Sequence record: NZ_CP066430.1
Length of the DNA: 57,029 bases
Reading direction: 5' to 3' (one strand)
DNA from: a plasmid
Program-made: the position numbers
Shown: piece by piece, positions 15,001 through 21,000 of the stretch
Numbering within the stretch: the first letter of the stretch is position 1
Layout of the letters: every line of letters starts with the position of its first letter

Positions 15001-18000
15001 ATTACTTCAGGTGATTCTATTATTCCAGCGGCATTGATGTATGAACACAAATTAATGTTTGAAGATAAAACGATTCATATTCCAGCTTATCCTACGGAAC
15101 AAATTCTAGCTGAAAAATTACATGCTACGTTTAGTTTCGGAAAAGATAATTCGCGCATGAAAGACTTTTATGACCTGTATATGATTCCAAAACTAGAACG
15201 TATCGATGAGAAAAACTTGTATAAGAGTGTTCAAGGAACGTTCAAGGAAAGAAATAATCAATCTGTGTTTAAAAAATTGTATAATCAGGAAATGCCTCAA
15301 TTGATGAAGGATGAGGGGTTGAGGGAAAAGTGGAAAAGATACCAACAAGAAAATTATTTTGCCAAAGACATTTCTTTCGAATCTACACTAACTTCCGTCG
15401 ATTCTTTGATGCAATCAATTGTAGAGCAAGAGAAAGTAGAACGAAAACAAAATTTTAAGAGATCACAACAAATGAATCAAGAAATGGAGAGATAAAAATG
15501 ATTAATAATGTAACTTTAGTAGGACGATTAACCAAAGATCCAGATTTACGTTATACTGCAAGTGGTACTGCAGTAGCGACTTTTACCCTAGCCGTTAACC
15601 GAAATTTCACGAATCAAAACGGCAATCGAGAAGCTGATTTTATCAATTGCGTGATTTGGCGCAAACCAGCAGAAACGATGGCGACATTAGCTAAAAAAGG
15701 CAGCTTGATCGGTGTTGTCGGACGGATTCAAACACGGACTTATGACAACCAGCAAGGACAACGTGTGTATGTGACTGAAGTTGTAGCAGATAACTTTCAA
15801 CTATTAGAAAGTAAAGCAGCGACAGAGAGCCGTGCGCATGCAGATCAATCGTCCACCAGTCCAAGCACCGCCACCTTTGAACAACGGGATACAGCGACGC
15901 CTAACAACAATGGATTGAACGCTTCACAGAATCCATTTGGTGGACAATCAATCGATATTAGCGATGATGATCTACCGTTTTAGTTCGAGAAAGAAGGAGT
16001 AAGCATGGCAAAAAAAAATAGTCTGACGATGGATCTATTGATACCCGTAATTGCATTTATAGACGGGATTTCTTTGGGTATCACTGAAAATCTTTTGGTA
16101 AATAGAATTGCGAAAGGATCACTATTTCTTGTATTCGTGTATCTTGTCTGTTCTTATCTTCTAAAAAGAGTAGGAAAGGATAATTCCTTTTGGCGATTGA
16201 CTAAAGTCACAATAGGCGCGACAGCTGTTATACTTACGGCTATTCTACCGCTTTATATGTAGGGTTAACGGGAAATCATTGAACTTCTTGCGAAATATTG
16301 TTATAATGAACATGAAAAAGAGGAGTTGCGCAAACAACCCCTCATTAACAGCACCGTTTAAAGAACGGCGGCTCAGATTAATTATTTATTGAGAAATAAC
16401 CGATCCTCGCTAAAGTGACGGTTATTTCTTTTTGTCATTTTTAAGCATATTTACAATCAAACTAATCAAAGCAATGGTAAACATACCAAAACCAAGAATG
16501 GTTTGAATTGTCTCATATGCGGACAAAAGGCTTACTCCTTTCATAGATTTTAGCACTTACATTCATAAGCACCACCACCTTCCAGAAGTCGCCACCGTCA
16601 TTAAACTTTACTGTCTTGATCATTATAGCATATCTAAAATCGAATAAAAATTCTCAATTTTAGCTGTTTTTGCTATAATTTTAGCGAGGTGATCGCGATG
16701 GAACATTATACTGGTTTACTCGATAAAATTCGGGTGATCAAGACACAGCCATTGCTTGTGCGATTTACATTACACACGAGTCATGAACCAATCAATTGTG
16801 TAGTGGCCAATATAGAAATAGCGGATAAATTGCTGATTTTGGAAGAAGGCAAGTATACTATTTCAGTGACAGGTCACTTCAATAAACGGAATCAATTAGT
16901 CATTGAATCGATGCAAATTAGAAACCCCGATCATTTTACGCGATCGATGGGCATATAAAAGAAGAGCTGCAATCCTAATGTAGGACTGCAGCTCTTTTTG
17001 TTTTACATAGAAACGGGAACAGGAAAAGGCCTTTTTAGGAAGGCACAAGTGCCTTCTCAATTGAAAAACCTTTCTCTCACTCCAACCGCCACCGCCGTTC
17101 GAGAAGAAAGGAAGTGAACGCTGCACGTTCACTAAGATAAGGGGTCTTGCAAAGCAAGACAAAATAGAAAAAACTTCCTCTCACCAAAAGGTTCGTTCCT
17201 GTTCGTTATCTCTTTATTGATTTGCCAGACCGGCAACAAGTTGCCTTTTATCACCAAAAAGCGACAAGGACAAGGGTAAATGGCACGCTGCGCGCCCTTG
17301 TCCTTGTCGCTTTTCGTTGATTCATTCTGGCCAACAAATCAATAAAGAAAGAACTAACGAAAGGAAGTAAAACCTTTCCTAAGAGGAGGCAGAATCAAAC
17401 ATGCGAAAGAAATTTGATTATTGGGGTGTTCCCTTCAGCGAATTATTCCCAAACTATCATGCACCACATACTGTCGAATGCGATTGTGGAGAAAGAGCGA
17501 AATGTATCAAAAGCTATCGTTTGTATCAATGTCCAATATGCGGGAAAAAATATACCTTGTCTTACGGCGATTACATTTTGATTGAAGAGAAAGGAAGATA
17601 AAATGATGGCTCAAAATTACTATGACGAATTTGTCAAATTACCTTTGGATAAAATGGCACAAAAAATGGAGGATATGACGTTCCTATACAACGAAACACG
17701 TGTTCCAAAAAAACATTATAAAGAAAAATTGTCGGTAGCTGTGGAAGAAATGATTGAATCAGGTGTCGAAATGAATCTTATTGCGACGTACTATCGAACA
17801 CTGGAAGAACTGAAAAAGCAAAATGCAAAATGGTTTTTCCAAGCCTTACTATGCTTGGAAGTAGGTGTCAAACCAAGCACTATTAAACCTTCTGAATACC
17901 AAGCTTTAGAACTAACGTATGCGAAATTTATCGAAACGAAAAAAGCCAAGACTGTTTCAAGTGAATGGTTAGATTATTTTGAAAATATCAATAAGTATGG

Positions 18001-21000
18001 CGCCTATTACACCATGAAAAAGGAGGACAACGAAAATGAATAATGTAGTTTATCAACTAACAATGGAAGACATTTCTCGTTTTTTAACAAACAAAGAACA
18101 TTTGAATGAAGTAATCAGACGGATTCAAAAAGACTTTAGTTGTATGGAAGAAATGAAGTACTTTGTTCAAAACGTTGAAGAACAGTTATATTTGGAAAGC
18201 GAAACGAGTCAAACAAAGGTCACAGTCAGCAATAATCGTTTAGATGTGTATAAACGTCGTCCTGAATCATTAAAAAAAGGAGCGGAGCTTCTACGACTAG
18301 AAACAGAAAAATACGTCATGAATGTTTACCTAGAAAAAAGTGAGTTGGTCGAAAATTTTATTAGCTACACGATTTGCAGGAAACACTATTACTCAGAATC
18401 AGAATATTATTCAATTTTTGAGAGCATGGAATTAATGGAAGAAGAAATGGAAGAGTTAAACAGTAAAGATGCGACGGTAGACGATTATTACCTTGTATTT
18501 ACTAGATTTTTAACGTGTGGAACGGAATCTATCGTGCTAATGGGAATAGATTACGAACTCGCTGTACCCGAAGCGTTTTTGAGGGAATATGTAGAAGAAG
18601 TAGATAACCCAGGGGATGATTGGTACACGACTTTAACTGATTTTTTAGACACCTACACTTACGACGATACAGAAGAAATCCAAAATGAGCTTGACCGTAA
18701 ACAAATGCCATATCAACGATTTGAAAGGAAAAAAGGTCAATAATCATTTATACCGAAAAGTGAGAATGTGTGAAATAAGAACAAAAAACCTTGAAATTAA
18801 GGGAATGGTTCTTATTTCGCACCAATCGCTCCAACCGCCCCCGCCGCTTAGGTGGTGCGAAATAAGCGAGCAAAGCCCGCTAACCAAAGAGAAAGAAGGA
18901 GATTTATATGAAAAAGATTATTCCCTTATTATTAGTACTATTTGTTGGCGAAATGCTTATGCGTCATGCTGCAACTGTGCATTTAAACTTCGTAGTATTT
19001 TTGGTAATACTGGTGTTTTGTTTGACCTTTTGGCGGTTTGTATTAGCCCTCGTGAGTTTACTATTCAAGATGATTGCAGCCATATTTTTCATAGGATTAT
19101 TTCGATGAGAGGAGAGAGTATCAATGCCAATTGCAATAGGAAATAAACGGTTACCCGTTACGTTGGATGAAAAGAGACAAAAAGAATTACAGCAACTTAA
19201 ACAGAAATACGGTAAAAGTGAATCCAGGATTATGTGCATTGCGTTAGATTTATTGATTGCGCAGGAAAAAGCAGGATTCAACATACCAGCGCTCAAAAAG
19301 TGACGTCACTTTTTGACTTAAAAAATAAAAGTGATAGCACTTTTATATAGTAAAAAGAAGAATAAACGTTAAGGGATAGAAAAAGAGAAAAGAACAAAAA
19401 AAGGCTCTTTGTCAATAAGGACTGATGAGTTGTGCAAAATCAAATCTGAGTCAGAATGAACCACATTCTGGCTCAGATTTTTTGTTATCTTACATTGATT
19501 AATTGATTGATCAAAAAGATTCTAATTCTCATGTTCTCAAATGATTTAAATCCGTAGGATACTCGTTTCATTGTCTTTATGTGGGTATTCTTCGCTTCTA
19601 TTTTTCCATTGGAATAAGGATAGATCATTGCGTTGGTGATGCCTTCTTCATAGGTCAGAAGGTTTTGAAGCTTTTCCCGAAAGCTGTCATCTAACGTTTC
19701 GGGAAGTTCTGCCAATAAGGAGAAAAATAAGTCAGGGTCTTTGTCTCGAAAGGCTTCAACTAATTCATGAAAAAAGGGATACGCCTCCTTTAGGGGCGGA
19801 GAAAACTCAAGCAATCGATCAATCATCATTGCTTCAGTAAGAAATGGGTATTTTGGTGCTCGGAAACTTTTCCATGTTTTGTATTCATAATGGTTGATGT
19901 TTGCACGATTTTTTAGCAAAAAGCGCCAGTTCTTTTTCAGTTTTTCTGCCTGGCTTTTCTGTCCGGCTTTACGAAGTTCATTCATTTCACGGATACGCAA
20001 CTCATTGAACGCTTGATTCATGTGTTTGACAATATGAAACCGATCAATCACGACTTTCGCATTTGGCAGAACACGTTTGGTGAGCTGGAAGTAGGCGGCG
20101 TTCATGTCTGTCACCAAGAATTCTACTTCTTCTGGATTGGTACAACCTAAGAAATAGCTTGTTAATCGAGGTAATTTACGCGTAGGCAAAACATCTATTA
20201 ATTTTCCTGTTTCGCCATCCGCGCAAATAAAGCTCATCTTATCTTCTATGGAAGCATGCGAACGAAATTCGTCAACCATCAATACTCTGGGGAGGATCTT
20301 CTTAGATTGCTTTGGTAAATAGCTTTTAAACTCTTTCAATGTACGAATAACGGTGGTCAAAGATACCTGACAGCTTTTCGCAATAAAAGATAAAGATACT
20401 TTTTCAGTCAGTAAAGAAGCAATTTTATATCTAACATGATTTGCGATTGAATGTCTGGGTTGGACAAAATAACTTTGAGCCGTCCAATGGGTGCGACAGT
20501 TTTTACAGGTATAGCGTTGCTTTTTTAGGCGCATAACCAAAGGCATATGATTGTATTGTTCAAAACGGACAATCGTTTCCTTTTTTCCATTTTTCACTAT
20601 AATTGCTTTCCCGTTTCCATCTACCACAGTAGAACCACAACTTCTACAAGCACGAGGAGTAGGCGAGAGAACAGCATCGACGACCAACGTCTTTTTCTTC
20701 TGAAGGGTCTCGTAAGAGACCTCTGTAATCATCAAATCTTTCTCTGTTATTCTCAGCATTTTTTTGATAGAATCATTCATATAGCGTATCGTCCTCTCAG
20801 TTGTTTATTTTGTGGTGATTTAATCATACTAGAGAACGATATGTTTTTTAATACCTAAAATGAAAATGGGGCTGAAGAATCAATTCTGATTCATCAGTCC
20901 CATAAATTATAGAGCCCAAAAAAAGAGCTAACAGTACCATTGTTAGCTCTTATGCAGTAATGAAAACCAAGCCTTTAAAAAAGGAGATGTTTCATCACAA

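Follow-up and report, generated by a model that had tools for sequence, protein, structure and literature searches.

Single-strand DNA promoters have been defined experimentally in the plasmids pESBL and F, where large stem-loops upstream of each early operon rebuild the -35 and -10 sequences, and three classes of them have been described (PMC12672017). They account for the expression of IncF and IncI anti-defence genes before the DNA is double-stranded; the comparable elements of pLS20 are still without an explanation. To our knowledge such promoters have so far been shown only in Escherichia coli plasmids, with none demonstrated in a conjugative plasmid of a Gram-positive host. An analysis was conducted of a 57,029 nt stretch of plasmid DNA (NZ_CP066430.1), referred to here as the window. 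It contains a GC-rich structured block at 17017-17392, directly upstream of a five-gene unit at 17401-19303. With a probability of roughly 50%, this block may be a Gram-positive counterpart of the Frpo/ssi single-strand promoters.

The likeness to the Frpo/ssi elements of F, ColIb-P9 and pESBL is drawn from their architecture as described. The shared features are a large imperfect stem-loop just upstream of an early operon and by ssb-type genes, and -35 and -10 sequences rebuilt in the stem with the -10 region unpaired. Like Frpo/ssi, the window element would also be weak or silent as double-stranded DNA and would have the transferred strand as template. Unlike Frpo/ssi, the window element has a Gram-positive host and an extended -10 (TGn) with a modest -35. 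The double-stranded form, as mapped in the pTEF2 homologue, has two divergent weak starts, and the element is accompanied by a hairpin with a conserved (CCN)4 loop. The element would also probably lie away from the leading end of the MOBL-type window plasmid.

As single-stranded DNA (ssDNA), 17000-17400 folds at -85.6 kcal/mol (z-score -9.9), and the block has a GC content of 43.6% against 36% for the window. A previous reading of the same DNA, made without database searches (the sequence-only reading), had described the structured block as smaller; the structure is real and extends further on both sides. A consensus scan between the terminator (16962-16996, within the inverted repeat 16959-16999) and the ATG at 17401 identified no consensus sigma-70-like promoter. 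The most prominent component is the long imperfect hairpin at 17186-17372, which on the - strand folds as DNA at -55.2 kcal/mol (z-score -10.9) with a 22-bp upper stem. This upper stem is formed by 17250-17276 and 17295-17321 around an apex loop at 17277-17294, and the lower stem by 17201-17224 and 17335-17358. There is an internal loop at the -10 region and a mini-hairpin (17232-17245) on one arm only.

The two arms of the long hairpin are inverted copies of one promoter sequence. The outward arm reads TTGTCC-17-TGaTAAAAG, with A at -11. The gene-facing arm reads TTGTCC-17-TGaTTCATT, a degenerate hexamer with T at -11, and is by its sequence a weak promoter as double-stranded DNA. The same architecture is shared by Enterococcus mundtii, L254, E. 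canintestini, plasmid pTEF2 and the E. faecalis plasmids L123, L124 and L256, with a recurring apex stem (CAAGGG/CCCTTG) and an asymmetric internal loop that has a mini-hairpin or extra bases on one arm. In pTEF2 the arms have TTGTCT, a 16-nt spacer, TGa, and the hexamers TACTGT (outward) and TTCTTT (gene-facing). Over five lineages, compensatory double changes are present at 15 of the 24 upper-stem pairs, and the differences between the window and E. mundtii are concordant on both arms. Further along the arms, which were traced in the window, E. mundtii, pTEF2, L123 and L254, each of these has a lower stem, and the inverted symmetry extends beyond both start sites. The asymmetry between the arms is itself kept in four lineages (the window with E. 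mundtii; L254; pTEF2 with L091; the L123 type): A at -11 is restricted to the outward arm (TGnTA...), together with the extra bases or mini-hairpin, and the gene-facing arm has T at -11.

Start sites have been mapped on the homologous element of pTEF2. Differential RNA sequencing (dRNA-seq) of E. faecalis V583 places a primary start at 36756 (-), 165 nt upstream of EF_B0038 and a second at 36854 (+) (Michaux et al., PMC7724050, Table S1). The latter is on the arm homologous to the outward arm of the window. The gene-facing start is weak, with a step height of 95 compared with 3,500-143,000 for other plasmid promoters (PMC7724050), which fits a poor double-stranded gene-facing promoter. In the pTEF2 fold each arm has one start at the equivalent place, immediately beneath the internal loop, and both starts are outside the upper stem that covaries. 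Neither mapped RNA therefore contains the conserved helix, which is read as acting at the DNA level. The pTEF2 promoter aligns base for base through its start with that of the window (TGaTTCTTT-CTCGGC-A and TGaTTCATT-CTGGCC-A, respectively), and this alignment predicts the +1 of the window at A17333.

From these features a mechanism can be proposed. The plasmid would enter the recipient as its - strand, in which 17186-17372 would fold into the long hairpin. The upper stem would rebuild a duplex -35 (TTGTCC) and spacer, leaving the -10 region pre-opened in the internal loop. The outward arm would be the non-template strand of the resulting hybrid promoter, providing from 17245-17253 the extended -10 TGaTAAAAG with its A at -11, and the opposite arm, the complement of the gene-facing arm, would be the template. 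Transcription by the host RNA polymerase would begin near A17333 and proceed out of the hairpin into the five-gene unit. Once the complementary strand had been made, the gene-facing promoter would read TGaTTCATT, with T at -11, and would be weak, so that the unit would be expressed as a burst on entry. If this is true, the hairpin is a defined, mutable switch for early gene expression, the downstream genes are marked as candidates for establishment or anti-defence functions, and Firmicutes plasmids can be searched by a simple rule: a promoter palindrome in which the outward arm, and not the other, has A at -11. A related element is present in pTEF2, which is related to the model plasmid pCF10.

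The mapped starts can also be explained without a single-stranded stage. The palindrome could be a double-stranded promoter and operator, with two back-to-back weak promoters, a repressor site, and a burst of expression when the repressor is absent from the recipient. Both arms do initiate in vivo on established, double-stranded pTEF2; the last gene of the unit (19124-19303) encodes a 59-aa protein, for example, that is weakly CopG-like (E = 0.17) and could be such a ribbon-helix-helix repressor; and Reg576 of plasmid p576 provides a precedent (PMC6294495). Against this, the assignment of the 59-aa protein is not significant, 27-bp arms and a 24-bp lower stem far exceed ribbon-helix-helix operators, and the inverted symmetry runs past both start sites. 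The compensatory changes keep pairing, not a fixed sequence, and the clustering of mismatches at -10 to +1 is left unexplained. An operator is thus considered possible but unlikely as the explanation. It is compatible with a hairpin promoter, and both could act together.

For the single-strand promoter, the strand that is transferred is critical. The features of the region, including a candidate oriT, are listed below.

Table 1. Coordinates in the window of the features of the hairpin block, the five-gene unit and the candidate oriT
Feature	Position	Strand	Remarks
Candidate oriT	2590-2800		Nested inverted repeats and GGATAG direct repeats
Bidirectional intrinsic terminator	16959-16999	both	Inverted repeat, terminator-like on either strand
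Motif hairpin 1	17069-17111	+	Stem CCTTTCTCTC / GAGAAGAAAGG; loop carries CTCCAACCGCCACCGCCG
Two short GC hairpins	17113-17160 (17113-17133, 17144-17160)		Between motif hairpin 1 and promoter hairpin
Long imperfect hairpin, proposed single-strand promoter	17186-17372	-	DNA fold, arm comparison, covariation
Outward-facing promoter arm	17245-17273	-	-35 TTGTCC (reverse complement of 17268-17273), -10 TAAAAG (reverse complement of 17245-17250)
Gene-facing promoter arm	17298-17333	+	-35 TTGTCC 17298-17303, TGa 17318-17320, TTCATT 17321-17326, predicted start A17333
Gene 1, 66-aa zinc-ribbon protein	17401-17601	+	Coupled operon
Gene 2, conserved 145-aa protein	17606-18043	+	Annotated from ATG 17606
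Gene 3, variable acidic 235-aa protein	18036-18743	+	pI 4.5; 8-nt overlap with gene 2
Motif hairpin 2	18768-18866, including competing hairpin	+	Perfect 14-bp stem 18811-18824 / 18853-18866
Gene 4, 66-aa membrane protein	18908-19108	+	Distal part of five-gene unit
Gene 5, 59-aa basic protein	19124-19303	+	Weak CopG/ribbon-helix-helix similarity, not significant
Strong terminator	19442-19480	+	End of five-gene unit

The candidate oriT contains the inverted repeats GAAACGTGA...TCACGTTTC and CCACTTTT/AAAAGTGG and at least six GGATAG direct repeats. It is followed by two small genes and then by a MOBL/MobP2 relaxase (3556-5148), a homologue of the relaxases of pLS20 and pBS72. This order of elements is shared with pLS20, for which the oriT and the nicked strand have been reported (PMC5313138). 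By analogy, the - strand would be the transferred strand of the window plasmid and hence the template of the operon. In MOBQ and MOBP origins the repeat usually lies 5' of nic on the nicked strand. The published minimal oriT of pCF10, an inverted repeat followed by GCTTGCA, is on the + strand of pTEF2 at 29909-29927; by this geometry the + strand of pTEF2 would be transferred and thus be the template of the homologous operon, which is on the - strand. The suggestion that the block belongs to a leading region applies to the pCF10-type plasmids, where the equivalent block is 3-7 kb from nic. It probably does not extend to the window plasmid, in which the block would, by the pLS20 analogy, enter late, about 70% of the way round, although the transferred strand would still be its template.

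The EGeRS1 elements of the pLS20 family, including pBS72 (PMC8708921), are also similar. They too are GC-rich multi-hairpin blocks directly upstream of a ribosome-binding site, without a constitutive or consensus promoter and with a block to read-through, before putative establishment operons, in plasmids with the same relaxase family. Multiple copies per plasmid are found as well in the E. faecalis relatives (three each in L123, L124 and L256), the window having a single full copy. By the EGeRS1 definition of more than 60% identity and several copies per plasmid the window element does not belong, and it is not filed as EGeRS1. Comparison of the window and E. faecalis leaders with pBS72 by blastn (E <= 1e-3) gave no hit, and no match to the loop motif described below, allowing up to 2 mismatches, was present in pBS72. 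EGeRS1 of pLS20 has its non-template strand transferred, the reverse of the polarity deduced for the window. The pBS72 sequence (L131) itself has four EGeRS1 copies (10820-11467 and three more) that are 97-98% identical; each has a GCAAGGG...CCCCTTGC stem and then CTGCTTTTTGATGGGAATG, which may loosely recall the enterococcal promoter arm.

Several points weigh against a single-strand promoter. The activity of the long hairpin as ssDNA is presumed, and the transferred strand of the window plasmid is derived only from pLS20. The authors who described EGeRS1 in pLS20 dispute an ssDNA promoter there, since the strand transferred is the non-template one. The late entry of the block is unfavourable, as are the leading regions of MOBP2 plasmids, which have been found without enrichment for anti-defence genes. 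The outward -10, TAAAAG, lacks T at -7, and its -35 matches the consensus at 4 of 6 positions. The start sites were mapped in the homologue pTEF2, not in the window plasmid. In the RepA_N plasmids L125-127 the leader hairpin differs in its -35/-10 layout. The function of the motif hairpins, considered next, is argued from their position and sequence.

The second conserved component is an 18-nt motif, CTCCAACCGCC[A/C]CCGCCG. There are two copies in the window, CTCCAACCGCCACCGCCG at 17080-17097 and CTCCAACCGCCCCCGCCG at 18829-18846, both on the + strand and both in hairpin loops, exactly where and in the orientation that the sequence-only reading had placed them. No further copies were found in the window with up to 3 mismatches allowed, the chance expectation being 0 (100 shuffles). 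A common flank, TTGAAA...AAAACCTT, had also been proposed; this is loosely true, the order and distance of the two words differing between the copies. Motif hairpin 1 has a 10-bp stem with one bulge (17069-17078 / 17101-17111; constrained dG -10.1, z-score -2.8 with shuffled flanks) and orthologues in pTEF2, E. mundtii, E. canintestini and E. alishanensis. It is upstream of the predicted mRNA start and behind the terminator at 16959-16999, which closes an upstream 89-aa gene and insulates the leader from a promoter at 16651. Motif hairpin 2 is perfect, with one more base pair than the 13 originally counted (dG -19.6, z-score -4.5 with shuffled flanks), and there is an alternative pairing of 18768-18782 with 18808-18822. 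It is not followed by a T-run. Neither motif hairpin has the short loop and T-run of an intrinsic terminator, the loops being 22-28 nt, and no start sites were mapped at the pTEF2 motif hairpins in the published dRNA-seq. The motif hairpins are thus neither promoters nor ordinary terminators. The two short GC hairpins that follow motif hairpin 1 each have a T-rich run after them on the - strand. An earlier suggestion of a single-strand promoter or initiation site at the motif loops therefore moves to the long hairpin, for which it is the best-supported reading.

Distant plasmids with the motif were reached via homologues of the conserved 145-aa protein. Together they give a wider consensus, C-TCC-N-ACC-NCC-NCC-NCC-G, in which the four N positions vary freely. 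In L125-127, which are 29.5% GC, the loops are CTCCCACCTCCCCCGCCG and CTCCTACCCCCACCTCCG and the 11-bp stems are unrelated to those of the window. A single copy directly follows ssb in pTEF1 and another a lone gene in L254; in pTEF2 the motif is in the leader and at the 3' end of the EF_B0038-pcfJ operon; additional copies are present in E. mundtii, E. canintestini and E. alishanensis. Searching other enterococcal plasmids, as had been recommended, thus reveals a conserved loop on unrelated stems (pTEF1, pTEF2, E. mundtii, L125-127). Flanks were shuffled to assess the hairpin context; an 'enclosing pairs' control was dropped, as GC-rich chance matches fold anyway. By this test copies between units or at 3' ends have strong stems (z-scores of -4.4 to -7.9) and several 5' copies have weak ones. 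Motif scans of genome and viral collections returned nearly all chance matches in high-GC genomes, with the informative ones in Enterococcus (L077, L089, L091 and L101). The motif hairpin is a conserved element and, in the proposed reading, a separate module of the system to which the long hairpin belongs.

The idea that the motif copies bracket the operon is upheld in so far as the arrangement recurs in pTEF2, E. mundtii and L125-127. Each copy is, however, more aptly placed between successive transcription units, and in the window copy 2 is within the five-gene unit that continues to the terminator at 19442-19480, between gene 3 and the gene for the 66-aa membrane protein. For such an arrangement it had been suggested that the copies are recombination sites through which the operon is mobilised as a cassette. 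Two copies in the same orientation do flank genes, the gene content of the unit differs among relatives, and in L126 the loop of one hairpin is inverted between its stems. No recombinase accompanies the motif, however, and the variable genes change within the unit, not at the motif copies: the extra gene and the replaced third gene seen in L077 and L122 are both inside it. The motif is also solitary in pTEF1 and L254. Recombination sites are therefore very improbable.

Two individual copies have unusual sequences. In L126 the loop of the second motif hairpin (5043-5060) is the exact reverse complement, between unchanged stems, of that at the corresponding loci (L125 4962-4979 and L127 5043-5060); this flip between inverted-repeat arms may be a polymorphism that exists in nature or may have arisen in assembly. 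In L089 (E. lactis CCM 8412, approximately 4500-4530) 8 nt (ATCGCTCC) that lie between two CCAA repeats are missing from the second copy, and a portion of the stem now provides the start of the motif (CACCAACCGCCCCCGCCG).

The C-rich strand of the motif is the gene-sense strand in every instance but that of L126, and it is possible to see the whole block as a sense-strand cis-regulatory leader RNA. Its hairpins would stop read-through and mask the ribosome-binding site, and a protein or small RNA would bind to the C-rich loops. In agreement with this, EGeRS1-B of pLS20 blocks upstream transcription in its native orientation only, CTTCCTCT (17176-17183) pairs with the Shine-Dalgarno region in the fold, and the motif keeps its orientation relative to the genes in all instances except L126b, where the loop is inverted. 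The mapped start of the homologue is inside the 3' arm, so the native mRNA is without the helix, and motif copy 1 precedes the predicted start and is shielded by a strong terminator. At the block there is no match to an Rfam family at gathering score, the matches in the window being elsewhere and to RatA, rli28 and group II intron models. A regulatory RNA, which the sequence-only reading had listed among its candidates, is accordingly disfavoured and judged to be decidedly improbable. Folding energy had been tried for assigning the strand: the antisense strand folds better by 18-43 kcal/mol, with more G-U pairs, in most leaders, including EGeRS1 of pBS72. This was dropped because shuffled sequences show a similar offset, and the apparent strand bias is largely an effect of base composition.

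The ssoA and ssoU origins and sso1 of ICEBs1 resemble the window element in being strand-specific folded ssDNA elements that are recognised by RNA polymerase, with a conserved sequence in a hairpin loop. They differ from it in that the window element is directly before an operon with a ribosome-binding site and has an 18-nt loop motif with a 3-nt periodicity. This raises a single-strand origin or priming site, at which RNA polymerase or the toprim primase makes primers at the hairpins and the mRNA is incidental; the motif loops would be a recognition or primer-termination signal, like CS-6 in ssoA. Such a role would be by analogy. Frpo is both a promoter and a source of primers (PMC12672017), genes for the toprim primase and Ssb are nearby on the plasmid, and each unit has, on the presumed transferred strand, a motif hairpin on its 3' side, from which a primer could serve to convert that unit. 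No CS-6 sequence (TAGCGW) was found on either strand of 17000-17400 or 18744-18907, nor was RSB found there, and the motif is present in pTEF2 and L125-127 without an obvious primase in the stretches examined. Priming as the main role is thus doubtful, and a single-strand promoter is preferred for the long hairpin.

With its 3-nt period the motif could be read as codons (CCN = Pro, GGN = Gly), which might suggest a coding origin. This was rejected, as no open reading frame or start codon is conserved on either strand across the instances. By quadruplex-aware folding, for which the RNA parameters are only indicative, the complementary (GGN)3GG gives a two-layer G-quadruplex in the loop. If the long hairpin is a single-strand promoter, the motif hairpins would be outside the 5' end of its mRNA, presenting on the transferred strand a G-rich (GGN)4 loop at the unit boundaries. 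Most likely, to judge from position and sequence, they would act on ssDNA, either blocking transcription or replication or providing sites for priming. A more specific and rather unlikely version is that they are a new cis-signal read on the transferred strand, a stem capped by a two-layer G-quadruplex that vanishes once the DNA is double-stranded, and thus a built-in timer for the establishment of enterococcal plasmids. Expression would then have two modes, one for each state of the DNA. In that case the hairpins of the ssDNA stage would stop polymerases at unit boundaries, which in the window would place the stop before the repressor-like last gene, or else would recruit a primase.

The genes of the unit give few indications of its function. 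The operon is coupled and encodes zinc-ribbon and acidic proteins as first described, gene 2 being annotated at 145 aa in place of 153 aa. The 145-aa protein is the conserved core, found on Enterococcus plasmids and, as homologues of approximately 40-55% identity, on other plasmid-like contigs with RadC, PcfM, methylase and toxin-antitoxin genes as neighbours. Its AlphaFold model is all-helical and mediocre, with a predicted local distance difference test (pLDDT) score of 69. The 235-aa protein is variable and confined to Enterococcus, and its model is poor (pLDDT 42). Neither model had a Foldseek match, and searches of the unit's proteins against Pfam, PHROGs, PADLOC, NCBIfam and PDB sequences returned nothing significant, in keeping with the initial impression of proteins without recognisable domains.

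E. faecium plasmids of 55-60 kb, NZ_CP016165 among them, match the region of the window at 100% identity; they have a RepA_N replicon, a MobP2 relaxase and MPF_T. At 86-100% identity the region is present in about 500-630 PLSDB records, almost all from Enterococcus. The hairpin block itself is carried by more than 500 sequenced Enterococcus plasmids, and many of these are from vancomycin-resistant clinical isolates. RefSeq annotation of an identical E. faecium plasmid lists every gene in 17401-19303 as hypothetical. It bears out the upstream context originally recognised: genes for an ArdC-like protein, a toprim primase and topoisomerase IA, together with AbiEi/Eii and ssb. A RatA/txpA-type toxin-antitoxin is upstream as well. 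This type I toxin-antitoxin comprises, in the window, the RatA antitoxin RNA (16304-16391, +), an rli28 model match (16456-16637, -) and an open reading frame for a 44-aa holin-like toxin at 16422-16556 (-), within 16304-16637. The RatA/holin-like toxin module adjoins motif hairpins in pTEF1, pTEF2, L091 and L101 too.

By far the strongest start in pTEF2 (step height 143,286) is that of an 85-nt RNA, sRNA_157 (35159-35243, + strand; L260). It is antisense to the point where an AcrIIA9-family gene adjoins the following gene, within the operon behind the proposed hairpin promoter.

Insertions concentrate around the operon unit, with three cases. In NZ_CP016165 an ISL3 element (L001 18578-19873) separates the upstream gene (L001 18228-18488) from the leader; in pY3-2 a Tn916-like element (L122 5017-8675) is in place of the second motif hairpin; and in the window an ISL3 element (19485-20780) is directly past the terminator of the unit. 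Elsewhere in the window, a group II intron at 52211-54896, matching the D1-D4 and domain V-VI models and containing a 625-aa open reading frame (52888-54765), is located in the transfer-gene region. Clusters of AAGTATAAGTTATAC repeats, direct and inverted, at 25400-25573 and 26868-27068 flank a parA-like gene and precede repA; these are probably the centromere and iterons.

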